Shown here: piece after piece, positions 9,091-36,011 of the stretch
Position numbering within the stretch: position 1 is the first letter of the stretch
Layout of the letters: every line of letters starts with the position of its first letter
NCBI GenBank assembly: GCA_023269235.1
Contig: JAHFTW010000003.1
Coordinates: 165,999-229,998 of the forward strand
DNA length: 64,000 bases
Source: Thermoplasmata archaeon
Lineage (GTDB): Archaea > Thermoplasmatota > E2 > JACPAO01 > JAHFTW01
Direction: 5' to 3'
The notes under the pieces: generated by a model
The model's input: only the letters and a program-made list of their open reading frames with translations
Told to the model about the DNA's origin: nothing
The model's database searches: none
Translations under genes and position numbers: made by a program

Positions 9091-10866
9091 TTGGGCATGG
9101 CCAGCACCACCTTCCGTTTCGCCGGCGAGTCCGGAGAGGGCGTCATCTCCGCGGGCGAGATCGCCTGCCTCGCGCTCAGCGACATCGGCTTCAACGTCTT
9201 CACGTTCGAGTCGTACCCCGCCGAGATCAAGGGCGGCCACTGCTGGTACCAGGTCCGCTCCTCCGACGACGAGCTGGCCTCCGCCGGTGTCGGCGTTGAC
9301 CTGCTCTGCGCTTTCAACCAGGAGGCCATTGACCTCCACGCCAAGGTCGTCAGCCCCGGCGGCGTCATCGTGTACGACCCCGGCCAGGTCACGGTCCCCC
9401 CGACGCGCACCGACGTCCGCCTCCTCGCCATCCCCTTCGACGAGCTCGTCAAGACCCAGGTCCAGTCGGCCAAGTCGAAGAACGTCTTCGCCGTCGCCAC
9501 CGTCGCGGCCCTGAGCGGCATCCCCGCCGCCGAGGTCAAGAAGACGATGCAGAAGAAGTACAAGGGCAAGAAGGCCGAGCTGCTCGCGCTCAACGACAAG
9601 GCCATCGACGCCGCGTACGCGCACATCGTCACCAACAACATCCCGCCCCTCACCACGATGAAGATCGGCCACCACGCCGAGGAGCGCACCCTCATCAACG
9701 GCAACGACGCGATCGCGCTCGGCGCCCTCGCCGCCGGCTGCGACTTCTTCGCCGGCTACCCCATCACCCCCGCCTCCAGCATCCTCGAGGGGCTCTCCGT
9801 CGAGATGCCCAAGCTCGGCCACGTCTGCATGCAGGCCGAGGACGAGATGTCCTCCCTCGCCCACTGCCTAGGCGCGAGCTACGCCGGCAAGAAGTCCGCG
9901 ACGGCGACGAGCGGCCCCGGCTTCAGCCTCATGCAGGAGCTGCTCGGCCTCGCCTCCACCGCGGAGTTGCCCGTCGTCATCATCAACTGCATGCGCGGCG
10001 GCCCCAGCACCGGCCTGCCCACGAAGCCCGAGCAGTCGGACCTCAACGAGATGGTGTACGGCTCGCACGGCGAGGCGTCCCGCATCGTCATGGCCCCCGC
10101 CGGCGTGCGCGACAGCATCATCCAGACCGTCTGGGCGTTCAACCTGGCCGAGAAGTACCAGGTCCCGGTCATCATCGCCACGGACCACTCGCTCAGCAAC
10201 CGCACCGAGAACATCATCCTCCCCAGCCTCAAGGGCACCCCCATCGTCCGTCGCAAGCTCGCCACCGAGGCCGACCTCGTGGACTACAAGCGCTACAAGT
10301 TCACCCCCGACGGCGTCTCGCCCCAGGCCATCCCCGGCATGGTCGGCGGCACGCACACCGCGGAGGGCCTCGAGCACAACGAGTACGGCAACCCGAACTA
10401 CACGGGCTCGAACCATGAGGCGATGATCAAGAAGCGCCTGCACAAGATCGATGACGCTTGGAAGTACCCGGCCGCGCTCGAGACGTTCGGCGACCAGAAC
10501 CCCGACGTCCTCGTCGTCACCTGGGGCAGCACCAAGGGCCCCGTCAAGGAAGCCGTCCTCGCCGCTCTCCAGGAGGGCAAGAAGGTCGGCTACGTCGTCC
10601 CCAAGATCCTCAACCCGCTCCCCGAGACGGGCTTCCTGGACCTCATCCAGAAGGCGCCGCAGGTCATCGTCGCCGAGATGAACCACACCGGCCAGCTCGA
10701 GGGCCTGCTGCGCAAGCGCGTCACGCGCGACTTCATCCGCCTCAACAAGGTGCATGGCACGCCGCTCACCTGGCTCGAGATCAAGGAGAAGATCGACGGC
10801 GCGCTCGCCGGCAAGATCAAGGCCACCGCCACGCACTCGTCCCTCAAGCAGGAGATGACCGCATGA
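9091..10866 (+). CDS. korA: 2-oxoacid:ferredoxin oxidoreductase, fused gamma-alpha subunit
   Basis: An N-terminal gamma domain ('ESGEGVISAGEIACLALSDIGFNVFT') is followed by an alpha domain ('GYPITPASSILE...'). The start may instead be ATG 9097 ('MASTTFRFAG'). Confidence 0.85.
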   Translation: MGMASTTFRFAGESGEGVISAGEIACLALSDIGFNVFTFESYPAEIKGGHCWYQVRSSDDELASAGVGVDLLCAFNQEAIDLHAKVVSPGGVIVYDPGQVTVPPTRTDVRLLAIPFDELVKTQVQSAKSKNVFAVATVAALSGIPAAEVKKTMQKKYKGKKAELLALNDKAIDAAYAHIVTNNIPPLTTMKIGHHAEERTLINGNDAIALGALAAGCDFFAGYPITPASSILEGLSVEMPKLGHVCMQAEDEMSSLAHCLGASYAGKKSATATSGPGFSLMQELLGLASTAELPVVIINCMRGGPSTGLPTKPEQSDLNEMVYGSHGEASRIVMAPAGVRDSIIQTVWAFNLAEKYQVPVIIATDHSLSNRTENIILPSLKGTPIVRRKLATEADLVDYKRYKFTPDGVSPQAIPGMVGGTHTAEGLEHNEYGNPNYTGSNHEAMIKKRLHKIDDAWKYPAALETFGDQNPDVLVVTWGSTKGPVKEAVLAALQEGKKVGYVVPKILNPLPETGFLDLIQKAPQVIVAEMNHTGQLEGLLRKRVTRDFIRLNKVHGTPLTWLEIKEKIDGALAGKIKATATHSSLKQEMTA

Positions 10867-21100: not shown

Positions 21101-21352
21101 TCTCGCCGTCGATTTCGGTTCCCATTTCGGCTTACGACGAACGACCCGGGGGTGTCCGCACGAGGGTTGGGCGCGGATTGTCGCATCGCTGGTGCCTTGG
21201 CGGGCAGCACGGATTTCCCAGCCAACGGTTGTCCGCGACTCGGACTGAGTACGCGTGGCCGGAGGAAGACTTGGAATCATCCTGGAGCATCGTCCTCGTC
21301 GGTGGCCGCTTCGCCCCGCCACCCCTTTAACCACCCCCGAAGTCGGACGCTT

Positions 21353-22810
21353 GTGCAGTTCGACAGCGTCGCCGACATCCTCGCCGGCAAGAAGACGGGC
21401 CAGACGGTCCATCTGCGCGGCTGGGTGCACCGTCACCGCGCCTCCGGCGGCAAGCTCGCCTTCGTCGTCCTGCGCGATGGGTCCGGCACTGTTCAGTGCA
21501 CCGTGAAGGGCGGCGTCGCGGACCCCGATAGCCTCGCGATGGCCGTCCGCGCCAAACTGGAGGCCTCTGTCTCTTCGCTCGAGGGCACCGTCGCCGCCGA
21601 CGAACGCGCTCCCGGCGGTTTCGAGGTCAAGGTCGCCAGGTTCACCCTCCACGAGCCCAACGGCCCGACCGGCGACTTCCCGCTTCGGGGCGAGCAGGGC
21701 ACCGAGTTCGAGCTCGACATGCGCCACCTCTGGCTTCGCTCGACGGAGCTGTCGGCCATCTTGCGCATCAAGCACCGCCTGTACAAGGCCGTCCACGACT
21801 TCTACGACCGCGAGGGCTTCACGCAAGTGGACCCCAGCGTCATCACTACTAACGCCTGCGAGGGCGGCAGCACGCTGTTCACGTTCGACTACTTCGGCCA
21901 GACCGCGTACCTCTCCCAGTCGGCGCAGATGTACCTGGAGGGCTGCATCTTCGGCCTCCCCAAGGTCTACTCCATCACGCCGAGCTTCCGCGCCGAGAAA
22001 TCGCGCACCACGAAGCACCTCACCGAGTTCCACCACCTCGAGGCCGAGTACGCCTGGTGGAACGCCGAGGACTCCCGCGTCCACCAGGAAAAACTGGTGA
22101 CGTACATGGCGCAGACAATCGCCCGTGAGTGCGCCGCCGACCTCATCCTCCTCAAACAGGACCCGGCCCGCCTCGCCAAGATCGGCACCTTTCAGCCCGG
22201 CGAGGGCGGCGAGGACATTGACGGCAAGCGCTTCCCCCGCATCGACTACTCCCAAGCCGTGGACCGGCTCAAGCAGCTCGGCTTCCACGTCAACTACGGC
22301 GACGACTTCGGCGTGCCCCACGAGAAGGCCCTGACGGAGGGCAAGGTCAACCCGCTTTTCATCTGCGACTGGCCCGCCAACATCAAGGCGTTCTACATGG
22401 CCGAGAAGCCCGGAACCGACCGCGTCCTGTGCAGCGACATGATGGGCCCCGACGGATTCGGCGAGCTCATCGGCGGCTCGCAGCGCAGCGAGGACGTCGT
22501 GTCGATGGAGCGCCGCCTCCTCGCGCAGTGGAAGGCCATGGCGCAGTCGAAGGATTTCGACGACCGTCGTCAGTTCAAGCACGAGTGGGAGGCCATCGCC
22601 GCCCGCCTCGGCGAGAACGCCACCGACGAGGCCATCGAGCAGGCGTACCTCAAGCCGTACCAGTGGTACTTCGACCTGCGCCGCTACGGCTCCGTGCCTC
22701 ACTCCGGCTTCGGCCTCGGCATCGAGCGCGTCCTTCGGTGGTTCACTGGCCAGGAGCACATCCGCGACATGCTGCCCTACCCGCGCACGCCGGCGAGGGC
22801 GTACCCTTGA
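21353..22810 (+). CDS. asnS: Asparaginyl-tRNA synthetase (class IIb; AsnRS-like rather than AspRS)
   Basis: An N-terminal OB anticodon-binding domain ('VHLRGWVHRHR..KLAFVVLRDGSG') is followed by class II motifs. 'YLSQSAQMYLE', 'FRAEKSRTTKHLTEFHHLEAE' and 'GGSQRSED...GFGLGIERV' favour AsnRS. The start was taken at in-frame GTG 21353 ('VQFDSVADIL'); no ATG is available. Confidence 0.75.
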   Translation: MQFDSVADILAGKKTGQTVHLRGWVHRHRASGGKLAFVVLRDGSGTVQCTVKGGVADPDSLAMAVRAKLEASVSSLEGTVAADERAPGGFEVKVARFTLHEPNGPTGDFPLRGEQGTEFELDMRHLWLRSTELSAILRIKHRLYKAVHDFYDREGFTQVDPSVITTNACEGGSTLFTFDYFGQTAYLSQSAQMYLEGCIFGLPKVYSITPSFRAEKSRTTKHLTEFHHLEAEYAWWNAEDSRVHQEKLVTYMAQTIARECAADLILLKQDPARLAKIGTFQPGEGGEDIDGKRFPRIDYSQAVDRLKQLGFHVNYGDDFGVPHEKALTEGKVNPLFICDWPANIKAFYMAEKPGTDRVLCSDMMGPDGFGELIGGSQRSEDVVSMERRLLAQWKAMAQSKDFDDRRQFKHEWEAIAARLGENATDEAIEQAYLKPYQWYFDLRRYGSVPHSGFGLGIERVLRWFTGQEHIRDMLPYPRTPARAYP

Positions 22811-23509: not shown

Positions 23510-23890
23510 ATGCAGCGATCCCGCGAGGCTCAGCCCGTCACCGACGAGATGCGTGCCAACTACACCGCGGCCCGCGCGTTCCTGTTCGGCGAATGGTTCG
23601 GGGCCAGCCTGTGCGTCGCCTCGTTCACGCTCCTCTACCTCTTCGCCTTCGCCGCGCCCGGCCTCTCCGCGACGACGACACTCATCGTCTGCCTCGCGAT
23701 GCTCGTCGTCGGCGCCTTCGTGTTCCTGCGCAACCGCGCCTACTACGAGCGCCTGGAGTTCCCTTGGGCCAAGCGCTGGCACATCGGGGCCCTCGTCACT
23801 GCAGGCTCCGCAGGCGTCTTCTGGCTCCTCTTCGCCCTCCTCACCACGCTCGCCGCCTTCGGCGTGGACGTCGGCCCCCCAAGCAAGTAA
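23510..23890 (+). CDS. Small membrane protein (3-4 TM)
   Basis: Hydrophobic segments 'LCVASFTLLYLFAFAA', 'LIVCLAMLVVGAFVFL' and 'VFWLLFALLTTLAAF'; no motif. It ends with a TAATG overlap with kae1. Confidence 0.45.
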   Translation: MQRSREAQPVTDEMRANYTAARAFLFGEWFGASLCVASFTLLYLFAFAAPGLSATTTLIVCLAMLVVGAFVFLRNRAYYERLEFPWAKRWHIGALVTAGSAGVFWLLFALLTTLAAFGVDVGPPSK

Positions 23891-24933
23891 TGCGACAAGG
23901 CGCTGGACTTATCCCGGCACGCAATCCCGAGGCCGTGGCGGTCCTCGGCATTGAGTCAACCGCCCACACCTTCGCCGTCGGGGTCGTGGAGGAGGAGAAG
24001 CCGGGCCGCGTCCGCGTCCTCGCCAACCAGCGCGCCATGGTGAAACCCGACCAAGGCGGCATCCATCCCCGCGAGGCGGCGCACGAGCACGCCGAGAAGG
24101 CCCCGGGGGTCCTGGCCGCGGCCCTCAAAGAGGCCAACCTCCGCCCAGAGCAACTCGAAGCCATCGCGTTCAGCCAAGGCCCCGGCCTCGGCCCCTGCCT
24201 GCGCGTTGGTGCCACCGTGGCCCGATCCCTCGCCGTCCGCCACGCGTTGCCCCTCGTCGGCGTCAACCACTGCGTCGCCCACCTGGAGATTGGCCGCGGG
24301 CTCTCCGGAATGGTGGACCCACTCCTGCTCTACGCCTCCGGCGCCAACACCCAGGTCCTCGCCCTGTCGCGCGGCCGCTACCGCGTCTTCGGCGAGACGC
24401 TCGACGTCGGCCTCGGAAACGCCCTCGACAAGTTCGCGCGCGGCGCGGGCATCCCGTTCCCCGGCGGCCCCGAAGTGGAGCGGCTCGCCGCGCAGGCCGA
24501 CCGCGCCAAGCTCCTCGACCTGCCCTACGTTGTCAAGGGGATGGACATGAGCTTCAGCGGATGGCCCATCGCCGCTGAGCGCCTCGTCGCAGAAGGGCAC
24601 TCCCTTGCCGACGTCTGCCACGCCATCCAGGAACACCAGTTCGCCGCCCTCGTCGAGATCACGGAGCGTGCCCTCGCCGCGACCGGCAAGACCGAGCTCC
24701 TCCTCGGCGGCGGCGTCGCCTGCAACGCGCGGCTCCAGGAAATGGCACGGTCCATGGCCCTCGAGCGCGGCGTGGCGTTCTTCGCCCCGCCCCGCAGCCT
24801 TCTCGTGGACAACGGCGCGATGATTGCGTGGCTTGGCCACCTCAAGCTCCGGGCCGGCGGCGCCGTCGCCGTCGAGGACTCTGAGGTCCAGCCCTACGAG
24901 CGCACAGACACGGTCGAGGTGACCTGGCGATGA
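23890..24933 (+). CDS. kae1: tRNA N6-adenosine threonylcarbamoyltransferase Kae1 (KEOPS catalytic subunit)
   Basis: 'VLGIESTAHTFAVGVV...GPGLGPCLRVGATVAR...GVNHCVAHLE...LLGGGVACNARL' gives the Kae1/TsaD ASKHA motifs with the metal-binding H-x-x-x-H (the 'HCVAH' segment). Confidence 0.85.
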   Translation: MRQGAGLIPARNPEAVAVLGIESTAHTFAVGVVEEEKPGRVRVLANQRAMVKPDQGGIHPREAAHEHAEKAPGVLAAALKEANLRPEQLEAIAFSQGPGLGPCLRVGATVARSLAVRHALPLVGVNHCVAHLEIGRGLSGMVDPLLLYASGANTQVLALSRGRYRVFGETLDVGLGNALDKFARGAGIPFPGGPEVERLAAQADRAKLLDLPYVVKGMDMSFSGWPIAAERLVAEGHSLADVCHAIQEHQFAALVEITERALAATGKTELLLGGGVACNARLQEMARSMALERGVAFFAPPRSLLVDNGAMIAWLGHLKLRAGGAVAVEDSEVQPYERTDTVEVTWR

Positions 24934-25559
24934 GCCTGCGCCTCGGCATCGCGGCCAGCGCGGAAGGCATCCTCGAACCCGTCGACCTGCTCGGCCGCGC
25001 AGCCCTCGCAAAGCGCCGTCTGGTCAAGCCGTACCGGCACCCGAGCCTCGACGCCCGCCTGCGCGCCGAGCGGACGCGCGACGAAGCGCGTCTCCTTCTC
25101 GCCGCCCGTCGTGCTGGCATCCCCGTCCCGATCCTGTACGACGCCGACCGCGGCGACGCGACCCTCGTGCTCGAGCGCATGGCCGGAGCGACGCTGCAGG
25201 AGCAGCTCGCCCACGACGCGGAGCCCGTCCGGACCGCGCGCATGGCTGCGTTCGGCGCAATCGCCGCGCGCCTCCACTCCGCGGGCCTCGTGCATGGCGA
25301 CCTGACCCTGCGCAACCTGCTCGTCCCGGAACCCGCCCGCGCCGACTCCCTCGTCCTCGTGGACTTCGGCCTCGGCGGCTTCACGCAGGAGTCCGAGCCG
25401 CGGGGCGTGGACCTGCACATCCTCGAAGAGGCGCTGGAGGCCGTGCGCCCCGACGCGGCCGTCCTCTTCGCCGCGTTCCTCACCGGCTACGCTTGGCCTG
25501 GGGCCGCCGCCGCGCTCAAGCGCCTCGACGAGATCCGCGAACGGGGGCGCTACCGATGA
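24930..25559 (+). CDS. bud32: KEOPS kinase Bud32 (RIO-type atypical protein kinase)
   Basis: A ~209 aa minimal kinase ('GDATLVLERMAG..L', 'LHSAGLVHGDLTLRNLLV', 'LVDFGLG'). Its ATG overlaps the kae1 stop (ATGA), so the two genes are separate and not fused. Confidence 0.8.
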   Translation: MSLRLGIAASAEGILEPVDLLGRAALAKRRLVKPYRHPSLDARLRAERTRDEARLLLAARRAGIPVPILYDADRGDATLVLERMAGATLQEQLAHDAEPVRTARMAAFGAIAARLHSAGLVHGDLTLRNLLVPEPARADSLVLVDFGLGGFTQESEPRGVDLHILEEALEAVRPDAAVLFAAFLTGYAWPGAAAALKRLDEIRERGRYR

Positions 25560-26143
25560 CAACGCCGTCGCCCCCGCTGACGTTCTTCACGACCAACAAG
25601 GGCAAGGTCGCCGAGCTCGCCTCGCAGCTCGCGCCCTTCGGCCTCACGGTGCGCCAGGACGCCCGCGGCTACCCCGAGGTCCAGGCGGACACGCTCGCCG
25701 AAGTCGCCGAGGCGGGCGCGGACTGGCTGCTCGCCAACGGCGCCACGCCCCCGTTCTTGCTCGAGGACTCCGGGCTCTTCGTGGCGGCGCTCAAAGGGTT
25801 CCCCGGGGTCTATTCGCGCCACACGCTCGACACCATCGGCCTGCCCGGGCTGCTCGCCCTTCTGCGCGACGCCCCCCCGGCGCGGCGCGAGGCCTGGTTC
25901 GAGACGGCGCTCCTGCTGGTCGAGGCCGACGGCACGCGCCGCCTCTTCACCGGCCGCTGCGATGGGCGCATCGCGGACACACCGTCGGGGACTGGCGGTT
26001 TCGGGTTCGACCCCCTGTTCATCCCCGCTGGCGCCACCCAGACGTTCGCCGCCATGCCCCCCGCCGCGAAGGCGGCCCTCAGCCACCGCGGGAAGGCGGT
26101 CGCGGCCTTCCTGGAGCACCGGAAGCGAACTGGAAAGCCCTAA
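25556..26143 (+). CDS. rdgB: Non-canonical purine NTP pyrophosphatase (Ham1/RdgB/ITPase)
   Basis: 'FFTTNKGKVAEL...LLEDSGLFVAAL.GFPGVYS...TGGFGFDPLF' is the Maf/Ham1 pattern. The ATG overlaps the bud32 stop. Confidence 0.8.
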   Translation: MTTPSPPLTFFTTNKGKVAELASQLAPFGLTVRQDARGYPEVQADTLAEVAEAGADWLLANGATPPFLLEDSGLFVAALKGFPGVYSRHTLDTIGLPGLLALLRDAPPARREAWFETALLLVEADGTRRLFTGRCDGRIADTPSGTGGFGFDPLFIPAGATQTFAAMPPAAKAALSHRGKAVAAFLEHRKRTGKP

Positions 26144-26171
26144 AGCCATCCGCGCAGGTGGCCAAGACGAC

Positions 26172-27341
26172 ATGGCCTCTGGACGTCGCATCGCCGGCAC
26201 CATCCTGATCATCCTCGCGGTGCTCCTCACCGTCGGCTTCGGCGCCCTCGTGTACGACCAGACCGGCGGCTCGAACGTGCTCGGCCTGGACGCCGACCTC
26301 GCGGGCTACATCATGGCTGGCGTCCTGGGCGCAATCGTCGTCGTCCTCTTCCTGCTCATCGTCGTCCACCACCGCGCCCGTCGGGCCCGTCGCATCGCCG
26401 CCCAGACCGTCGCCGCCGAGCCCCTGCCCGAGGCCGAGGTGGAGTTCACCGAGGTCGCGCCCAGCACCCCGCTCGCCAAGGCGGCCGCCTCGGAGCCCGA
26501 CGCGGGCGAGCCGAGCGGCCCCGAGGTCGTCGTGTACGACCTGCCGCAGGTGCAAGCCGCCTACCGTTCCTTCGAGCGCGCGGACGGCGCGGCCACCTTC
26601 ACCTACCCGCGCACCGTCGCTTCCGCGGTCTACACCAACGACCACCTCGATGTCGGCAACCAGCACGTCAAGGTCCGCACCCTGCTCGCCGGCCCAGCCG
26701 ACGTCGGGCCCATCCCGGACGACCAGGCGGCCCCGGTGCCGCTCTCCCTCGGCCCCGACGACGTGCCCGAACCCTACCGCTCGAGGCTGTTCCGCGCTCC
26801 GAAGGCCTCCAAGATCTCCCCGACGGGCAAGGCCGCCGACGGCGACGCCTTCGTGGCCAAGCTCGCGGAGGCCCGCACCGCCGCCAAGCCCAAGCCCCGC
26901 GCCGGCCCCTCCTACTACGGCTACTCCGGCGACGTCCACCCGGTCGAGGACATCGAAGGCATCGGCGCCATCTACGGCGACAAGCTGCGCAAGGCCGGCG
27001 TGTACACGACCGACCGCCTCTGCTACGAGAAGCCGCAAACACTCGCCGACAAGGTGGGCGTCCCCCGCAAGACCGCCGAGACCTGGCAGCACATGGCCGA
27101 GCTCGTCAAGATCAAGGGCGTCGGCCCCCAGTACGCCGAGGCCATGGCGCGCGCTGGCATCCGCGGCATCGCCGACCTCAAGCGCCGCAGCGCGGCCGGC
27201 ATCGCCGACCAGGTCACCGGCTACCTCGACTCCCTGAACGCCACCGTCGTCGGCACCGCCGTCACGGAGGCCCGCGTCGCCAACTGGCAGAAGGCCGCGG
27301 CGCGCATGAAGCGCGTCCGTCTCAAGGTCCCCGAGCAATAG
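26172..27341 (+). CDS. Membrane-anchored protein with C-terminal DUF4332-like tandem helix-hairpin-helix
   Basis: Two N-terminal TM helices are followed by an A/P-rich linker and then 'VEDIEGIGAIYGDKLRKAGVYTTDRL...IKGVGPQYAEAMARAGIRGIADL'. Confidence 0.65.
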   Translation: MASGRRIAGTILIILAVLLTVGFGALVYDQTGGSNVLGLDADLAGYIMAGVLGAIVVVLFLLIVVHHRARRARRIAAQTVAAEPLPEAEVEFTEVAPSTPLAKAAASEPDAGEPSGPEVVVYDLPQVQAAYRSFERADGAATFTYPRTVASAVYTNDHLDVGNQHVKVRTLLAGPADVGPIPDDQAAPVPLSLGPDDVPEPYRSRLFRAPKASKISPTGKAADGDAFVAKLAEARTAAKPKPRAGPSYYGYSGDVHPVEDIEGIGAIYGDKLRKAGVYTTDRLCYEKPQTLADKVGVPRKTAETWQHMAELVKIKGVGPQYAEAMARAGIRGIADLKRRSAAGIADQVTGYLDSLNATVVGTAVTEARVANWQKAAARMKRVRLKVPEQ

Positions 27342-28434
27342 GCGGAAGCCCAACGCGGCGCACGGGTGCGGCCGGTTGCGGCGCCCGTCGCGGCGGCACG
27401 GTCGCCGGCATCGCCATGGGCAGGATGGGCAGCTCGCCGAGCGTGAGCTGGCGCGTCGGCTCCGGCAACGGCGCCGTCACCCACTCGAAGGGCGGGTTGA
27501 AGAACGGCCGGCTCAGGACGAGGCCGAGCTTTCGGAAGGCGGTGTCCAGCTCGGCACGCCAGGCTGCCTGCCGGTCGTTGGAGGCGAAGAACTTCGTGAG
27601 GTCCTCCCACGGTCCGCCGCGCAGGCGTTCCCAGAGTGGCGCGAGGACGGTCTGCTTGCGGTCGAGCCCCTTCGAGTTGACCCACTGCGCTCCGGCGTCC
27701 AGGAAAGTGCGCGCCACCGCGTCGGCGTCGTGCGTCGTCGGCGGGCAGGCGGGCGTGTAGTTGGCGAACGTGCTGATGCCCGAGTCGGAGAGCTTGCGAA
27801 GGGCGCGTAGGCGGGCGGGGATCGCGGGCGCGGCGGGCTCGAGGACGCGGCGCACTTGGTCGTCGAGCGTCGGGACGCTCAGGCCCACGCGGATCTGGCT
27901 GAACTGCGTGAAGAGGTCCAAGTCCCGAAGCACGAGGGGGCTGCGGGTGAGGACCTCGACGGGCCAGTCGCGGCGGGCGAGGATCTCTAGGCACTTGCGC
28001 GTGATGCGGTGCTCGGCCTCCGCGGGCTGGTACGGGTCGGTCGCCGTGGAGAGGTAGGTCGTGTGCTTGAGGCCGGCCTTCTCCGCCTTCGCGACGGCGC
28101 GGGCAAGGCGCGTCGGCAGGTCGCGTTTCACCACGACGTAGCTGCCCCAGCGTTTGCGTTCCGCATGGATGGTGTCGGGGACGTAGCAGTAGGCGCAGGC
28201 GTGCAGGCAGCCCGCGTACGGGTTCAGCGACCACGCCTCCTTTGTGATGTGGCCGCCCATCGTGAAGTCGGTGAGGCCGCCGGCGCCGTCGGACTCGAGC
28301 ACCTTGCAGAGGCCGTACGAATCGCGCCCCAGGCCGTCAGCGCCCCTCTGGGCGTCGTCGAGGGACAGCTGGGACAGGTCGTGCGCCCGGCGGAGCATCG
28401 GGTGGACCGTGTCGTTGCGGTAGTCCATCGGCAT
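27322..28434 (-). CDS. Radical SAM enzyme, spore-photoproduct-lyase-like (COG1533 / SplB 'DNA repair photolyase' family)
   Basis: 'NPYAGCLHACAYCYVPD' is the atypical CxxxCxxC cluster of the SPL/COG1533 family; the 370 aa length fits. Confidence 0.75.
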   Translation of the reverse strand: MPMDYRNDTVHPMLRRAHDLSQLSLDDAQRGADGLGRDSYGLCKVLESDGAGGLTDFTMGGHITKEAWSLNPYAGCLHACAYCYVPDTIHAERKRWGSYVVVKRDLPTRLARAVAKAEKAGLKHTTYLSTATDPYQPAEAEHRITRKCLEILARRDWPVEVLTRSPLVLRDLDLFTQFSQIRVGLSVPTLDDQVRRVLEPAAPAIPARLRALRKLSDSGISTFANYTPACPPTTHDADAVARTFLDAGAQWVNSKGLDRKQTVLAPLWERLRGGPWEDLTKFFASNDRQAAWRAELDTAFRKLGLVLSRPFFNPPFEWVTAPLPEPTRQLTLGELPILPMAMPATVPPRRAPQPAAPVRRVGLPPIARGP

Positions 28435-28544
28435 ACCGTCGCATGGGGCCGCAGCAGGTTTTACGGCTTGGAGGGGGTCGGCGAAGATGCCGAATCCGTT
28501 ACCGGATCCGGCACCGCTTTCAACGATGGGGTGTGTGGGCCCGC

Positions 28545-29225
28545 GTGGCCGGCGTCATCGGTCTGCGGGGCCCCGACATCGAGAAACGCGATGCCCTTCG
28601 CGGGTACCAGGTCGTGTTCAAGGACGCGGACCGCCCCATCATCCGGCCTCACACGGGTCTGCCGGTTCTCTTCGTCGACGACGGCAAGGCGAAGGTCGAC
28701 CGTCACGTGTTCGGGTTCAGCCGCCGCTTCAGCAGCTTCAACGCCCGCGACGACAAACTGGAGGAAGGCAAACTCTGGATGGGCATGTTCGGCAAGGCGG
28801 GCCACCACGGCGTCGCTCCCGTGTCCTACATCCTGGAATGGTCGGAGTTCTCGGGTGAGAAACTGCCGTACCGCATCGAGCGCGCCGACGGCGCCGCCAT
28901 GTGCGTCCCCTCCCTCGTCGGCCGTTACTGGGAGGCCAAGGACACGCGTGCGGTGGCGCTCGTCACGATCACGCCCAACCCGTTCGTCGCCCGCTTCCAC
29001 GACCGCATGATCGGTCAGCTCGACGACCAGCACGTCGACGTCTGGCTCCACCCCGAAGACCACACTAAGGCCGAGCTTCGCGCCTGCCTCAAGGCGCCGT
29101 CGAACGATGACCTTGTCGCCATCCCGATCCAGGCCGACGTCGGCTCCGCCAAGTTCAGCGACACGTCCGCCCTCGAGGCCACCGGCAAGCCCCTCACGTG
29201 GAAGGACATCAAGGGGGCAAGTTGA
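28545..29225 (+). CDS. SRAP (SOS-response-associated peptidase, DUF159/YedK/HMCES) homolog, paralog 1, with Cys2 replaced by Ala
   Basis: 'FNARDDKLEEGKLW', 'ALVTITPNP' and 'FHDRMIGQL...VWLHPED' match the YedK 'INARVETA', 'LIVTAAA' and 'IHDRRPLVL' motifs. The start was taken at in-frame GTG 28545 by alignment with paralog 2 ('MAGVIGL' against 'MAGLIGL'). No Cys occurs near the N-terminus. Confidence 0.6.
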   Translation: MAGVIGLRGPDIEKRDALRGYQVVFKDADRPIIRPHTGLPVLFVDDGKAKVDRHVFGFSRRFSSFNARDDKLEEGKLWMGMFGKAGHHGVAPVSYILEWSEFSGEKLPYRIERADGAAMCVPSLVGRYWEAKDTRAVALVTITPNPFVARFHDRMIGQLDDQHVDVWLHPEDHTKAELRACLKAPSNDDLVAIPIQADVGSAKFSDTSALEATGKPLTWKDIKGAS

Positions 29226-29884
29226 TGGCCGGCTTGATCGGGCTCAAGAGCTCCGACATCGAGATCCAGGACGCGCTCCAGGTGACCAAGTTCGACTACG
29301 AAGGCAACTGGATTCCGCACCCCGTCGTCCGCCTCACCACGACGCTCCCCGTCGCCATCAACCGGGATGGCGAGCGCGTCGCGGTCCGCGCCCGCTGGGG
29401 CTTCCCCATCGGCGGAGGCCGCCCCGTCGGCAACTCGCGCGACGACAAGCTCGAAGTGAGCCCGATGTGGAAGAGCATGCTCGCGAAGAGCCCCTGCCTG
29501 GTCGCGGCGACTGGGGTCTATGAGCAGGCCGTCGTGGATGGCGAGAAACGGAATCTCTGGTTCCGCCGGCGCGATGGCAAGCCCATCGTCATGCCCGGCT
29601 TCGCGGCCCCGCGCACCTTCGACGGCGAGGCGCGGCTTTGCTGCAGCATCATCACGACGGAGCCGAACAAGTACTTCGGACGCTTTCACCCCCGGCAGGT
29701 CTGCGTCGTCAACCGCAAGGAGGCCGATGCCTGGATGGGCGCCACCACGCCGAAGGAGGCATTGGCCGTCCTGCACGCCCCGGCGGAGACGGAATGGGAA
29801 GCGGTCCCCGTCGATGGACGCATCTTCAAACCAGGACGCGTCGAGATGGAGCACCTCGTCCAGCTCGGACCCCCGATTCCGTAG
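29225..29884 (+). CDS. SRAP (DUF159/YedK) homolog, paralog 2, N-terminus 'MAGL' instead of 'MCGR'
   Basis: 'MAGLIGLKSSDIEIQDA...NSRDDKLEVSPMWKSM...FHPRQVCVV'. The ATG overlaps the paralog 1 stop (TGATG). The 3' end overlaps the convergent polB-like gene by about 59 nt. Confidence 0.65.
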   Translation: MAGLIGLKSSDIEIQDALQVTKFDYEGNWIPHPVVRLTTTLPVAINRDGERVAVRARWGFPIGGGRPVGNSRDDKLEVSPMWKSMLAKSPCLVAATGVYEQAVVDGEKRNLWFRRRDGKPIVMPGFAAPRTFDGEARLCCSIITTEPNKYFGRFHPRQVCVVNRKEADAWMGATTPKEALAVLHAPAETEWEAVPVDGRIFKPGRVEMEHLVQLGPPIP

Positions 29885-32198
29885 CCTGTTCGGGCCGTCT
29901 CGTGCGACCCATGAGCCACGCGACCAGGCCCTCCTCGGTGTATCCAAGAGGCGAGAACAGCGTCTCCGTCATGCGCGCGACGAGGCGGATGTAGGCGTCC
30001 ACGTCGTAGGTCTCCTGGGGCGACCCGAACCACGGCGAGCCTTGGCCCAGAAGCTCGACGGGGGTGACGCGGCCACGCCACGGGCCTTCGGTGCGGGTGA
30101 TGACGTACTTCACGTACTCCCCGGGGCGCCGCTCGGTGCCCGCGTTGCGCAGCGCCCACAGCGCGGCCTTGGTGCCCGTGTTGGAGGTGTACTCCTCGAC
30201 GGCCATGCGTGCTTGCACCATGAGGCCCAGGTCCTCGGCGCGCACTTCGCGGCGGCGCAGACGGTCGACGGCGCGCTTGGCGACCCGTAGCGCCAGCGGC
30301 ACCCGGGTTCGGAAGCCGGCCGCATCGTCGGCCTCCTGCAGGATGTCGAGCATGCCCTGCTGCACGTCGTAGAGGAACGGCGGCGTGTTGTGGCGCTGCA
30401 CCTCGATGCCGCGCACCTTGAGCTTGCCGTCCTCGAACTTGCCATAGTACCGGTTTGGGACGCCCACCTCGCTCTCCGTCGAGTGCGTCTTGGAGGGCAA
30501 GAGGACGAGCCACTTGTAGACGCCCTCGACGTCCATCGGGACGCCGACCTCCTTGGTGATTTTGCGGGCAATGGCGGCTGCGTCGTCGCGCGTCACGCCG
30601 GGTTTGTGCAGGAAGGCGCAATCGGTGAGCGCGTGGACCATCGTGTACCCCTCGGCCTGGGCGACTTCGCGGGCACGCGTCATGCCGGCGCGGCCATAGC
30701 ATTGGATGCTCTGGTGGACCTCGGCGCACCCGAAGCGCGCGTTGCGGTAACGGAAGTATCCGAAGCAGACGACGCCGAGCGCCTTGTGCTCCGACTTGAT
30801 GGCCTTGGCCTTCGCGCGCCGGTCCGCGTCGAGGTCGGCGCGCTTGAGGACGGCCTTCGCCCAGCGTCGGTGCGACCAGAGACGACGCAGGATCTCTGCC
30901 TGGTGGCCGTAGTGTTTCGTGCAGGTGTGGTAGCCGAGCTCGGGGATGACGGGCCCGTCGGGGCAGCAGCTGCAATTCATGGAGTCGCTGCTAAGGTTGT
31001 GCGCCACGACAAGGCTCGGGTAGTAGCCGGAGAAATCGCAGGCGGCCACGTCGTCGTAGAGGCCGGGCTCGGGGACCATGATCTGGCCGCCGCGGTCCAC
31101 GGCGCACAAGGTGGCGGCGGTCTTCCAGTCCTCCGTGAGGTTGCGCTTCCACGGCAGGGCCACGCCCCAGTCCGTGGCGAGGTCGACCTGCATCTGTTGC
31201 AGTGCGAAGCCCGCGCCGTTGCGGTTCACGTCCTGGGCGCGCCGGTTGGCGACGCGGGCAAGGTAGAGGATGCCGTGGAGGTCCTTGCGGTCGTCCTCGG
31301 AGTCGAGCGTCTTCTTCGCGAGGTCGATGTGCCAACGGCCGCGCAGATAGTAGGCGTGCGTCTTGTAGAGCCAGCGCCCGTAGGTGTGGATGCTCTTGCC
31401 CGCCTGGTCCGGCCGGTCCGGGGCCGGGTCGGGGGCGCGCCCGAGCCAGACTCCCTCGCGCAGTCCGAGCGCCTGGATGCGCGTCAGCAGGAACGGGATG
31501 TCGAAGCGATCGCCGTGCCGCGTGACCAGGACATCGGGGTCGTTCTGGCGGAGGAACCGGTCCAAGCCCAGGAGGGTGGCGCGTTCGGCGTCGGGGTCGC
31601 CGGGTTTAGGGCAGACGAGTTCTTGGTCGCCGAGCGTGATGGATTCCAAGGGGTCCGTGAAGGCGGGCGCGTGGCCGACTTGCCGGGCATGGACTTCCAG
31701 GCGCACGACGCGAAGGTCGGGGTCGGGATAATCGACGGTCCAGCGATCGTCCTCGGGATGCGGCTTCAGCTCCGGCCCGTCGGGGCCGACCACAAGGCGG
31801 CACATGCTCCACAAGCCCTGTTCGTGCATCCAACGGCACTCTTGGCTATGATCCACGTCGAAGAAGAGGAAGCCCTTCGTGTGCGTGCGGCGTCGCAGGT
31901 CGGTGGCGATGCTCCAGGTGTCCTGGAAGCGCTTGGGCTTGACCCGCAGAACCTCCTGGGCCGGGCCGCGCAACCAGAGGCTCGCCGTGTCGCGCCACAC
32001 CGCCTCGACGCGCTTGTCCTCCGCGAGGAGCCGTTGGGCGGCCTCCAGCGGCTCTTGGTCGCTGGCGACGCAGAAGCTAGGCTGGTACGGGACGTAGCGC
32101 TTCGTGGTCTGCAAGCCGTGTTTGACCCAGACGACCAAGCAGGAGCGGGTCGGGTGGGTGGACACGTCGAGCAACCAGGCCTGCGTTGGCGAGGGCAT
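29826..32198 (-). CDS. Family B DNA polymerase paralog with degenerate polymerase motifs (likely inactivated or divergent PolB)
   Basis: It aligns along its length with archaeal PolB (reference residues recalled from memory of Pfu Pol). The N-terminal domain ('AWLLDVSTH..CLVVWVK..YQPSFCVA') and motif A ('DFSGYYPSLVVAHNLSSDS') are clear. Motif B reads 'HKALGVVCFGY' where KxxxNSxYG is expected (the NS positions are VV). Motif C reads 'VHALTDCAF' where YGDTDS/YADTDG is expected (first Asp is Leu). The KKRY position reads 'SKTHS'. The Exo I position reads 'FFDVDHSQE' for 'FDIET'. The start was taken at ATG 32198 ('MPSPTQAWLLDV'); the upstream S/T/P-rich extension was rejected. Confidence 0.7.
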   Translation of the reverse strand: MPSPTQAWLLDVSTHPTRSCLVVWVKHGLQTTKRYVPYQPSFCVASDQEPLEAAQRLLAEDKRVEAVWRDTASLWLRGPAQEVLRVKPKRFQDTWSIATDLRRRTHTKGFLFFDVDHSQECRWMHEQGLWSMCRLVVGPDGPELKPHPEDDRWTVDYPDPDLRVVRLEVHARQVGHAPAFTDPLESITLGDQELVCPKPGDPDAERATLLGLDRFLRQNDPDVLVTRHGDRFDIPFLLTRIQALGLREGVWLGRAPDPAPDRPDQAGKSIHTYGRWLYKTHAYYLRGRWHIDLAKKTLDSEDDRKDLHGILYLARVANRRAQDVNRNGAGFALQQMQVDLATDWGVALPWKRNLTEDWKTAATLCAVDRGGQIMVPEPGLYDDVAACDFSGYYPSLVVAHNLSSDSMNCSCCPDGPVIPELGYHTCTKHYGHQAEILRRLWSHRRWAKAVLKRADLDADRRAKAKAIKSEHKALGVVCFGYFRYRNARFGCAEVHQSIQCYGRAGMTRAREVAQAEGYTMVHALTDCAFLHKPGVTRDDAAAIARKITKEVGVPMDVEGVYKWLVLLPSKTHSTESEVGVPNRYYGKFEDGKLKVRGIEVQRHNTPPFLYDVQQGMLDILQEADDAAGFRTRVPLALRVAKRAVDRLRRREVRAEDLGLMVQARMAVEEYTSNTGTKAALWALRNAGTERRPGEYVKYVITRTEGPWRGRVTPVELLGQGSPWFGSPQETYDVDAYIRLVARMTETLFSPLGYTEEGLVAWLMGRTRRPEQATESGVRAGRGAPSRRVLV

Positions 32199-32469
32199 CG
32201 AGGGCCTCCTGGAGGTCTTTCTTGAGCAGGTCCAGCTCCCGGCCTTGGTCGTCCATGAGGCGCATGCCTTCGAGGAGCATGGCGAGCATGACGGGCCGTT
32301 CGAAGTCCATGTGGGGGCGGCGGTTGATGGCGTTGGAGTGGCGGCGGGCGCGGCAGACGAGCTCGTCGAACCACGCCTGCTCCCGGGGTTGGAGTTCGCT
32401 GCGGAACTGCGCGTAGCGTTGCGTGAACGTGTCAAGGGCAATGGTGGTGGTGGGAGTGCTTTGGCCCAT
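32077..32469 (-). CDS. Hypothetical small protein (130 aa) immediately upstream of the polB-like gene
   Basis: Protein-like composition ('FDELVCRARRHSN...ELDLLKKDLQEALDALANAGL'), while the antisense frame is G/A/V-rich junk. The 3' end overlaps the proposed polB-like start by 122 nt, so either its end or the polB start is uncertain. Confidence 0.4.
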   Translation of the reverse strand: MGQSTPTTTIALDTFTQRYAQFRSELQPREQAWFDELVCRARRHSNAINRRPHMDFERPVMLAMLLEGMRLMDDQGRELDLLKKDLQEALDALANAGLVARRVHPPDPLLLGRLGQTRLADHEALRPVPA

Positions 32470-32490
32470 GGGGCACCTTAGGAGAAAGGC

Positions 32491-33195
32491 CTAGGCGGCG
32501 AGGGGTTTTGGGAGTCTGCGTGGGGGCAGTGAAACCACGAGCTCCGGCTCCTCCGGGACGAAGTCGAGCAGGGTCACGCGGCGGCGCAGGCTGGGGTCGA
32601 GGATGACGCCGGCGTCACTCGTCGCCCTCCACCGGTCCGCGACCGGCTGCGCGACCCAGCGGGCGTCCACGCCGTCGTGCGTCGCCTGCGCGAGAGCGGG
32701 GTGGCTCTTCCACCACCGTGGCATGTCCACGCCGAGCAGGATGGGAACGTGGAAGCGGCGTGCCGTCTTGGCGAGGTGGGCGAGGCTGAAGCGCGTGTAG
32801 TCCTCCTGCTCCCAGTCCTGGATCTCCTCGTGGCTCCACAACCGGTCGAAAGGATTGACGACGACGAGACCCGTTTCGCCCTCGCCCAGCTTGAGGTCCA
32901 GGTGGCGCGTGAGGACGGTGTCCCATTGGAACGGCGTCATGCAACGCTTGACGAGGAGCCGGTCGGCGCCATCGTCGGCGGCGTGGCCCCGCGTCATTTG
33001 CAACTCGGCCTGGTCGTAGGGGTTGAAGCTGTGGTCGCCGTCGCACCACAGGACATTTCCGGGCCGTTCACGCAGCGCGGTGTACGCGATCTCTTGGAAG
33101 AACTGCGCGAGGTGGCGGCCCTTCGCGCTCACCAGGGTGAGGCGGTCGGGCTCCAGGAACGTCGACCACACAACGTCCCGTGGTCGGCGGAGCAT
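32491..33195 (-). CDS. Hypothetical protein (234 aa), first gene of the polB-like cluster
   Basis: 'MLRRPRDVVWSTFLEPDRLTLVSAKGRHL...LWCDGDHSFNPYDQ...LVVVNPFDRLWSHEE...' has ordinary composition, strong GC3 bias and no recognisable motif. Its ATG at 33195 lies 21 nt upstream of the next ORF. Confidence 0.55.
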   Translation of the reverse strand: MLRRPRDVVWSTFLEPDRLTLVSAKGRHLAQFFQEIAYTALRERPGNVLWCDGDHSFNPYDQAELQMTRGHAADDGADRLLVKRCMTPFQWDTVLTRHLDLKLGEGETGLVVVNPFDRLWSHEEIQDWEQEDYTRFSLAHLAKTARRFHVPILLGVDMPRWWKSHPALAQATHDGVDARWVAQPVADRWRATSDAGVILDPSLRRRVTLLDFVPEEPELVVSLPPRRLPKPLAA

Positions 33196-35579: not shown

Positions 35580-36011
35580 ATGTCCCGCCACGCCAGCAGC
35601 AAGCCCGTCCGCGACGCCGCCCCCACCTGGGTCCCGCTTCGCCCCCGCGAGGTCGAGCAGAAGGTCGTCGAGCTCGCCAAGGAGGGCAAGCAGCCCGCCG
35701 TCATCGGCCTCATCCTGCGCGACTCCTACGGCATCCCGTCCGTCCAGGAGCTGTGCGGCAAGAAGATCGTCCAGATCATGAACGAGGGCGGCGTCACCAC
35801 GAAGCTGCCCCAGGACCTGCAGAACCTGGTCCGCCGCAGCATCCACCTCCAGGAGCACCTCGCCGCCAACAGCCGCGACCTGCACAACCTGCGCGGCCTC
35901 GAGCTGATGGAGTCCCGCATCCGCAGCCTCGCCAAGTACCACACCGGCCGCGGCGAGCTGCCCGAGGGCTGGAACTACACCCGCGCCGGCGCCCGCCTGC
36001 TCGTCGAGTAA
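35580..36011 (+). CDS. rps15: 30S ribosomal protein S15 (uS15)
   Basis: '...KQPAVIGLILRDSYGIPSVQEL...LQEHLAANSRDLHNLRGLELMESRIRSLAKYH' is the archaeal S15/S13e pattern (143 aa). Confidence 0.85.
   Translation: MSRHASSKPVRDAAPTWVPLRPREVEQKVVELAKEGKQPAVIGLILRDSYGIPSVQELCGKKIVQIMNEGGVTTKLPQDLQNLVRRSIHLQEHLAANSRDLHNLRGLELMESRIRSLAKYHTGRGELPEGWNYTRAGARLLVE

Follow-up and report, generated by a model that had tools for sequence, protein, structure and literature searches.

Natural SRAP paralogs with alanine in place of the catalytic cysteine, encoded beside a PolB2 operon in a Thermoplasmata archaeon

What can a SRAP protein do once the residue on which its known function depends has gone? As far as that function is understood, SRAP proteins form a stable thiazolidine crosslink that guards abasic (AP) sites in single-stranded DNA (ssDNA) from breakage, a reaction based on Cys2, a cysteine that has been called “absolutely conserved” (Aravind et al., 2013). 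The question is raised by a 64,000-nucleotide stretch of a Thermoplasmata archaeon (assembly GCA_023269235.1, contig JAHFTW010000003.1), hereafter the window, in which two adjacent SRAP genes, SRAP-A and SRAP-B, both encode alanine at position 2. An initial annotation of this locus considered the two products to be plausible non-covalent binders of AP sites or ssDNA. The analysis described here places them in a clade of alanine-2 (Ala2) SRAPs that keeps the alanine without exception, and for which imine chemistry through the N-terminal amine is tentatively favored. The genes and sites concerned are listed below in window coordinates.

28435..28544, no strand: divergent intergenic region of 110 bp between a radical-SAM gene and SRAP-A
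28545..29225, + strand: SRAP-A, 226 amino acids, GTG start, TGA stop at 29223-29225, N-terminus M-A-G-V-I-G-L
28548..28550, + strand: Ala2 codon of SRAP-A (GCC), at the catalytic Cys2 position
29223..29227, + strand: TGATG stop/start overlap from SRAP-A to SRAP-B, with an AGGGGG Shine-Dalgarno-like run 9 nt before the ATG
29225..29884, + strand: SRAP-B, 219 amino acids, ATG start, TAG stop at 29882-29884, N-terminus M-A-G-L-I-G-L
29228..29230, + strand: Ala2 codon of SRAP-B (GCC), at the catalytic Cys2 position

Are these proteins SRAPs at all, and is the alanine where the cysteine should be? By homology and fold, both are members of the SRAP superfamily. Against a gathering score of 27.1 bits, the Pfam SRAP profile PF02586 matches SRAP-A with 73.8 bits and SRAP-B with 87.5 bits, as the initial annotation had proposed in assigning both genes to this family. 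The fold was read from a model of SRAP-B, to which SRAP-A is linked by 28% identity over the full length. The AlphaFold (AF2) model of SRAP-B has a predicted local distance difference test score (pLDDT) of 95 and a predicted template modeling score (pTM) of 0.92, and its top 21 Foldseek matches in the PDB are all SRAP structures (template modeling score, TM, 0.69-0.84; E to 7e-15). The best of these are the YedK crosslink (6nua), the Schiff-base complex of the YedK C2A mutant (8d2m) and HMCES, with TM 0.75-0.84; phmmer also aligns SRAP-B to YedK and 2f20. The hidden Markov model (HMM) match of SRAP-B covers profile positions 3-213, from Gly3 onwards, so that Ala2 sits in the Cys2 column. For SRAP-A only profile positions 74-213 are aligned, and the N-terminal register was taken from a MAFFT alignment to YedK together with 117 canonical MC(G)R proteins. 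In column 2 of that alignment, cysteine occupies 100% of the 117 canonical proteins and alanine 100% of families A and B, which confirms the reading of Ala in the place of Cys2 in both window copies.

A trivial explanation would be that the cysteine has been missed: a start codon placed wrongly, a sequencing or assembly error in the Ala codon, or a pair of decaying pseudogenes. Two circumstances lend it some color, namely that the NCBI record of SRAP-A (P0121) places the start four codons further upstream and that all sequences come from metagenome-assembled genomes (MAGs). Yet an exact M/V-A-G start is found in 103 of 118 family-A orthologs and in most family-B orthologs, N-termini thus being identical in position in most orthologs. 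Because the 103 A orthologs begin exactly at [MVL]AG, the true start of SRAP-A is taken to be the GTG at 28545 rather than the upstream NCBI start. The window sequence contains no in-frame Cys-Gly upstream of either SRAP start, and the cysteines nearest the N-terminus lie far inside the proteins (C120 and C181 in SRAP-A; C91, C139, C140 and C160 in SRAP-B). The starts called initially, with no cysteine exposed, are therefore genuine. Nor do the genes look decayed: the frames are intact, the SRAP-B model is confident, and in a window of 70% G+C the third codon positions of SRAP-A and SRAP-B (GC3 0.85-0.87) give a strong coding signal. The two genes are arranged as first described, in tandem and translationally coupled through TGATG, the stop of SRAP-A and the start of SRAP-B having one base in common (GTTGATGGCC). 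Inspection of the 110-bp intergenic region revealed no convincing Shine-Dalgarno sequence ahead of the SRAP-A GTG, and the poor match suggests that the SRAP-A transcript may be leaderless.

The decisive evidence on this point is comparative. Among 5.8 billion proteins searched, SRAP-B has 131 relatives and SRAP-A 141, the top 120 of each being 53-100% identical; they derive mostly from MAGs of the phylum Thermoplasmatota. Wherever the N-terminus is intact, residue 2 is alanine, in 117/117 family-B proteins (pattern [MV]-A-G-L-[IM]-G) and 118/118 family-A proteins (pattern [MVL]-A-G-[VI]-I-G-[LM]), that is, in 235/235 orthologs. At codon 2, the 36 genes compared, taken from 24 loci, have GCC in 19 cases, GCA in 6, GCG in 6 and GCT in 5, and TGY in none. 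Since four synonymous alanine codons are used and the cysteine codons never, Ala2 must be under purifying selection at the amino-acid level; an interchange of Cys and Ala, moreover, takes two nucleotide changes. With so many independent orthologs in agreement, an artefact is effectively refuted. The first annotation had argued for selection over sequencing error from the presence of two copies with the same substitution, and the case now stands on the stronger ground of 235 orthologs, four codons and monophyly.

How did such a lineage arise? A profile built from families A and B was compared with 1.84 billion representative proteins and gave 16,614 SRAP hits, of which nine had E < 1e-30. These nine are A and B representatives, fragments of these, and proteins of the types MAGLVGV, MAGLEGI and a degenerate MAVLLGL. 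Below the Ala2 clade, bit scores drop sharply from 158 to 125, where canonical MCGR proteins begin, and in the latter the first ~30 residues remain unaligned to the profile. In a distance tree the Ala2 sequences are monophyletic in 200/200 bootstraps, a result that is the same when the first 12 columns are removed. The survey of homologs for Cys2 loss, proposed at the outset, has thus yielded one monophyletic Ala2 clade, confined for the most part to Thermoplasmatota MAGs. Judged from the alignments, the clade comprises at least four paralog lineages, A, B, D (MAGLEGI) and E (MAGI[IV]G), which are mutually 25-35% identical, and the most economical reading would be that Cys2 was lost once, long ago, and that the clade diversified afterwards.

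Cys2 has also been replaced outside this clade. At locus L020 (9470..10140), a paralog of the canonical lineage begins with ATG GCC GGA CGT (MAGRIVYTWD) and is TGATG-coupled to an upstream A-type gene; to judge from its sequence, it is an independent Cys-to-Ala change. Two further representatives lack Cys2, P0275 (MPGRLGL; Pro2, with Gly3-Arg4 kept), whose Pro2 recalls the N-terminal proline of Fpg, and P0268 (MVARLTQ; Val2). P0243 (MAVLLGL), a derivative of the Ala2 clade, is without both the Asn and the His of the active site discussed below. All three are rare, with one or two members each, and may contain errors.

What remains of the SRAP active site around the alanine? In YedK, N75, E105 and H160 are responsible for ring opening and Schiff-base catalysis (PMC9436759), while R77, T149 and R162 anchor the AP-site phosphate (PMC6821365). 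All six are kept in the window proteins, the first three as N66, E98 and H152 in SRAP-A and N70, E100 and H155 in SRAP-B, and the anchor as R68, T141 and R154 in SRAP-A and R72, T144 and R157 in SRAP-B. In the YedK-anchored alignment W175 is likewise kept, as is I147. Over 148 A and B sequences the invariant positions (B numbering) are A2, G3, G6, N70, R72, E100, T144, H155, R157 and W170, and the N-terminal heptapeptide MAG[LVI][IVE]G[LI] is conserved above the level of canonical SRAPs. Of these positions, A2, G3, G6, the Asn, Glu and His and the Arg/Thr/Arg anchor are shared by the D and E types, the Glu of the D type after realignment by eye: the MAFFT alignment suggested its loss, which on inspection was judged a two-residue misregister, SYVVER corresponding to the family-A SYILEW. 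The initial statement that both paralogs keep the remaining family motifs holds, with one refinement: the “HDR or HPR box” is H-D-R in SRAP-A and H-P-R in SRAP-B, with a variable Asp/Pro between an invariant His and Arg. In the canonical YN[IV]AP motif, N37 and A39 are replaced in the clade.

A laboratory mutant of YedK offers a guide to what such an active site could do. In YedK C2A, the amine of the N-terminal alanine reacts with an AP site to give a borohydride-trappable imine, seen in structure 8D2M, and the protein then cleaves DNA by beta-elimination as an AP lyase, the rate constants being 1.7 for the imine step and 0.05 for the lyase step (PMC9436759). The E105Q change drops imine formation 10-fold and cleavage 25-fold, while H160Q has little effect (PMC9436759). 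By analogy, a sequence of steps can be proposed for the Ala2 SRAPs. Alanine as residue 2 is a favored context for methionine aminopeptidase, and removal of Met1 by this enzyme would leave the alpha-amine of Ala2 free. At an abasic site in ssDNA, the Arg/Thr/Arg anchor would grip the 5' phosphate, and the Asn, Glu and His would open the sugar ring and help the Ala2 amine to attack, with an imine as the product, as in YedK C2A. On chemical grounds a thiazolidine crosslink should be impossible, because the proteins have no 1,2-aminothiol; without the thiol, the imine could not close to the stable ring. It would then proceed either to beta-elimination, that is, AP-lyase cleavage leaving an alpha,beta-unsaturated 3'-phospho-aldehyde (3'-PUA) and a 5'-phosphate, or to hydrolysis, in which case the protein would act as a reversible shield. 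The outcome expected in vitro is AP-lyase cleavage; in vivo, a hydrolysable and reversible shield from which the lesion is passed to PolB2, the neighboring polymerase, would be the alternative. Since the Asn/Glu/His triad and the anchor are kept in four lineages and Ala2-Gly3 is absolute, the likeliest chemistry is an imine formed by the alpha-amine of Ala2. Imine formation at ssDNA abasic sites, ending in cleavage or in reversible shielding, is accordingly put forward by analogy as the best-supported account, with a probability a little short of even.

Many relatives may in addition be tethered to PCNA. In 66/120 A and 31/120 B orthologs the C-terminus consists of a linker, basic and of low complexity, and the motif [KR]QxxL(xxF), with examples such as KQATL, QSTLEF, QAGLGSF and QQALF that resemble the archaeal PCNA-interacting peptide (PIP). 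The carriers are A orthologs among P0123-P0190 and B orthologs among P0022-P0118, and such tails also occur in C- and D-type paralogs at L001, L022 and L023.

Several observations weigh against imine chemistry as the function of these proteins. In YedK, R4, P40 and W106 touch the DNA 3' of the lesion, and W103, I147 and P164 house the thiazolidine ring (PMC6821365). R4 has become L/V in 100% of the clade sequences, P40 has become L and W106 Q in family B, and of the positions of the thiazolidine pocket W/F103 has become I and P164 V/I. Both the adduct pocket and the route taken by the DNA 3' of the lesion may thus depart from those of YedK. The lyase step of YedK C2A itself is ~30-fold slower than imine formation (PMC9436759). 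A lyase acting at replication forks would break ssDNA, the opposite of the known SRAP role, and beta-elimination may have been suppressed by selection. A PIP-like C-terminal tail is present in neither of the window copies. Finally, archaeal N-terminal alanines are sometimes N-alpha-acetylated, which would block the amine.

The same replacements could be taken to mean that the substrate has changed. The proteins might then act on 3'-PUA ends, 5'-deoxyribose phosphate (5'-dRP) or oxidised abasic sites, or in the reversal or removal of SRAP-DNA crosslinks, and not on internal AP sites. Apart from the altered R4, P40 and W106 contacts and the W103 and P164 pocket residues, this idea draws on the reaction of YedK with 3'-PUA and on the ability of the SRAP active site to reverse crosslinks (PMC9436759), and a canonical Cys2 paralog, found alongside in some loci, hints at a division of labor. 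It is, however, inferred solely from residue changes that favor no particular substrate, and the 5'-phosphate anchor and the sugar-recognition residues match those for AP sites; among the alternatives with any standing it is the least probable. What the residues do appear to settle is nomenclature: by alignment, the Ala2 SRAPs lack the Cys2 signature, Arg4 and the thiazolidine pocket, so an annotation as AP-site crosslinking proteins is unsuitable for them.

Why would the whole catalytic triad be kept if the proteins did nothing but bind? The proposal first made for this locus, a non-covalent binder of AP sites or ssDNA that senses or shields them reversibly, or brings in PCNA and PolB2, is the main rival. 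It accords with the absence of Cys2, and YedK C2A keeps its binding to ssDNA (Kd 7.9 vs. 2.2 uM), with N75, R77, T149 and R162 each adding to binding in YedK (PMC6821365). An adaptor role would suit the PIP-like tails, and an action free of breaks would suit the protective biology of SRAPs. Against this stand the Glu and His, invariant in four deeply diverged lineages: YedK H160A binds slightly better (PMC6821365) and E105 is chiefly catalytic (PMC9436759), so that binding alone fails to explain their conservation. The conservation of the Ala2-Gly3 heptapeptide beyond that of canonical SRAPs points the same way, as does the ready formation of the imine, a Schiff base, in YedK C2A (PMC9436759). 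Non-covalent binding is therefore no longer the best-supported explanation, and is regarded as rather unlikely, though it deserves to be kept in view.

Imine chemistry, the favored account, has also to be seen in its genomic setting, which the initial annotation missed: variable arrays of two to four SRAP genes beside a PolB2 operon, some with a canonical Cys2 copy. A scan of one genome per species with family B as the query found 23 related loci, in which conserved neighbors are confined to further SRAP genes and a single family-B polymerase. The SRAP array adjoins this polymerase in 12/23 loci, and many of the other contigs are short. Arrays hold two to four paralogs of varying order and orientation, for example A-B-C-D in L001, B-C-D-A in L012 and B-A-C-D in L023, where C denotes the canonical type [MV]CGR[VI]V.VWD with Cys2. 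A lies near B in about 14/23 loci, and tight stop/start coupling, in either gene order, is seen in L001, L020, L022 and L023. Further Ala2 types in the arrays begin with MAGLEGIDAS... and MAGI[IV]G[LI]RAEDMEQ..., and paralogs are located at L001 8641..9345 and 9348..10046, L012 736..2439, L023 9439..10987, L010 773..1453 and L015 7543..8220. In loci with divergent A and B, ~0.9 kb separates the two, and a PIN-domain gene can be located there (L009 7526..7912).

It is possible to read these arrays as assemblies of non-catalytic partner subunits that would form heteromers among themselves, with a canonical Cys2 SRAP or within the PolB2-iRadA-PPB2 complex, and would regulate crosslinking, its reversal or the hand-off of lesions. 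TGATG-coupled multi-paralog arrays would fit this, as would the canonical [MV]CGR copy in L001, L003, L007, L011, L012, L022 and L023, the steady adjacency to the polymerase and the rare P0243 without Asn and His. But the 64-kb window has no canonical SRAP (tblastn with C-type queries), B stands alone in L004, L008, L016 and L018, and the DNA anchor and catalytic residues, all of them kept, point to direct action on DNA. SRAPs, moreover, are known to act as monomers. A role as partner subunits is improbable, if marginally less so than a change of substrate.

The polymerase neighborhood of the window itself consists of three genes, on the strand opposite to the SRAP pair.

29826..32198, - strand: PolB2-like family-B polymerase (Pfam, NCBIfam and PDB alignment), convergent with SRAP-B, with a 3' overlap of 59 nt
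32077..32469, - strand: PPB2 candidate, a conserved open reading frame (ORF) of 130 amino acids between iRadA and PolB2
32491..33171, - strand: iRadA-like protein, 226 amino acids, with a RadA/Rad51 ATPase-core fold

The PolB2-like protein has the motif A DFSGYYPS and the motif C LTD, in which the first Asp of DxD is replaced; motif C is [LM]TD in 12/12 polymerase orthologs. Its start was set by codon-position GC at the ATG at 32198, with AGGAGG upstream. The iRadA-like protein and the PPB2 candidate find nothing by Pfam, NCBIfam or PDB phmmer, and iRadA was settled by fold alone: the AF2 model has a pLDDT of 92.6, and its top Foldseek match is the ATPase domain of P. furiosus RadA (TM about 0.65). 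The P-loop is degenerate (LVSAKGRH, with no GK[ST]), a PIP-like RRVTLLDF lies near the C-terminus, and one ortholog carries the NCBI name Rad51. For the PPB2 candidate, which has no Pfam match, the identity comes from position and conservation only (tblastn conservation in 7 loci). The candidate and PolB2 share 122 nt, at the tail of the former and the start of the latter (32077..32198), and the codon-position GC signal moves from the PPB2 to the PolB2 frame exactly at 32198; the final ~40 codons of the candidate may thus not be translated in the annotated way, or else the two genes may truly overlap. The order of the three genes on the - strand (33171..29826) matches that of the iRadA-PPB2-PolB2 mutasome, and the operon lies tail-to-tail with SRAP-B.

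In three related species PolB2 consists of two ORFs, broken near motif B (L001 9830..14975, L002 10645..14406 and L019 2756..5939) by inserts of 0.9-2.5 kb, with the split point at about residue 537 in the numbering of the long window ORF (32441..29826). An intein was ruled out for the split PolB2 of L001, the insert being an opposite-strand Kelch/galactose-oxidase-like gene and the halves separate ORFs.

On the other side of the SRAP pair, two genes that both look DNA-related are found.

27322..28434, - strand: PA0069/Rv2578c-type radical S-adenosylmethionine (radical-SAM) protein, in divergent orientation to SRAP-A, with the CxxxCxxC motif GCLHACAYCY
25962..27341, + strand: DUF4332 protein with a helix-hairpin-helix (HhH) and a long low-complexity N-terminus, adjoining the radical-SAM gene

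The radical-SAM and DUF4332/HhH genes were considered as a conserved repair cluster and rejected, being absent from all 23 related loci. Housekeeping genes nearby on the + strand include an aspartyl/asparaginyl-type class II tRNA synthetase (21152..22810), Kae1/TsaD followed by an overlapping Bud32-like kinase (23593..25559) and ribosomal protein S15 (35580..36011), and they confirm a chromosomal, archaeal setting, in line with the archaeal host presumed from the start.

Taken together with this setting, the proposed imine chemistry would give the Ala2 SRAPs a role in DNA-damage tolerance beside the iRadA-PPB2-PolB2 translesion polymerase, the functional coupling being suggested by gene position, and the C-terminal tails of many relatives would tether them to PCNA. 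In its broadest form the hypothesis sees them as selected N-terminal-alanine enzymes, either ssDNA AP lyases or deliberately reversible imine clamps, that turn the SRAP shield into a means of processing or passing on the lesion and team with a canonical SRAP and the PolB2 mutasome at archaeal forks. This wider proposal is possible, and is to be held more loosely than the chemistry itself. Were it true, the SRAP scaffold would allow two opposite fates of an abasic site at the fork, to be locked or to be cut or released, with residue 2 as the evolutionary switch.

The interest of the clade does not depend on that outcome alone. A thiol-free SRAP lineage under strong selection amounts to an experiment of nature on the use of the active site when no crosslink forms, and the PolB2 operon and PCNA-type tails connect it to damage tolerance in archaea, a poorly understood field. 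Where Cys2 and Ala2 paralogs stand in one array, they may divide the work on abasic sites at forks. As YedK C2A predicts AP-lyase or transient-imine chemistry, the hypothesis is open to standard assays. No earlier report of natural cysteine-less SRAPs, of their link to PolB2 in arrays or of archaeal SRAP biochemistry was found in the full-text literature, in which subscription journals are incompletely covered; within that literature, the Ala2 SRAP lineage is previously unreported.

How does this system compare with those already described? SRAP genes are enriched near polB2, and the first Asp of DxD is replaced in most PolB2 enzymes (Timinskas et al., 2025, PMC11791011). The operon described here resembles the PolB2 mutasome of that study in its gene order, the substituted DxD Asp, the inactivated RadA-fold partner and the PIP-like motif. 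It differs in that some of the orthologous PolB2 genes are split at motif B, and the mutasome paper makes no mention of cysteine-less SRAPs or SRAP arrays (PMC11791011). With Fpg/Nei (MutM/EndoVIII), the Ala2 SRAPs would share an alpha-amine Schiff base at C1' and a nearby Glu, a mechanistic analogy only: Fpg/Nei enzymes have a helix-two-turn-helix (H2TH)/zinc-finger fold, work on duplex DNA with glycosylase activity and use Pro1 as the nucleophile, and the significant Foldseek matches of SRAP-B are all SRAPs, with none to Fpg/Nei.

The closest relatives are YedK and HMCES, which the Ala2 SRAPs resemble in PF02586 homology, in fold (TM 0.75-0.84) and in the residues equivalent to Asn75/Glu105/His160 and Arg77/Thr149/Arg162. 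Proximity of the genes to a translesion polymerase is a trait of canonical SRAPs as well, and the PCNA-type tails at the C-termini of many orthologs have their counterpart in HMCES. Differently to YedK and HMCES, every member of the clade has Ala for Cys2, with Arg4, W103 and P164 changed as well and, in family B, Pro40 and Trp106; their genes form multi-paralog arrays, and the N-terminal heptapeptide is highly conserved. The nearest mechanistic counterparts are the YedK C2A and C2S mutants (8D2M, PMC9436759), which have the same active-site frame, C2A exposing an alanine after removal of Met. Whereas YedK C2A is a laboratory point mutant, the Ala2 SRAPs form a natural, ancient and selected clade with coordinated further substitutions, and by comparison with that mutant the balance between lyase and hydrolysis may have been tuned in them.

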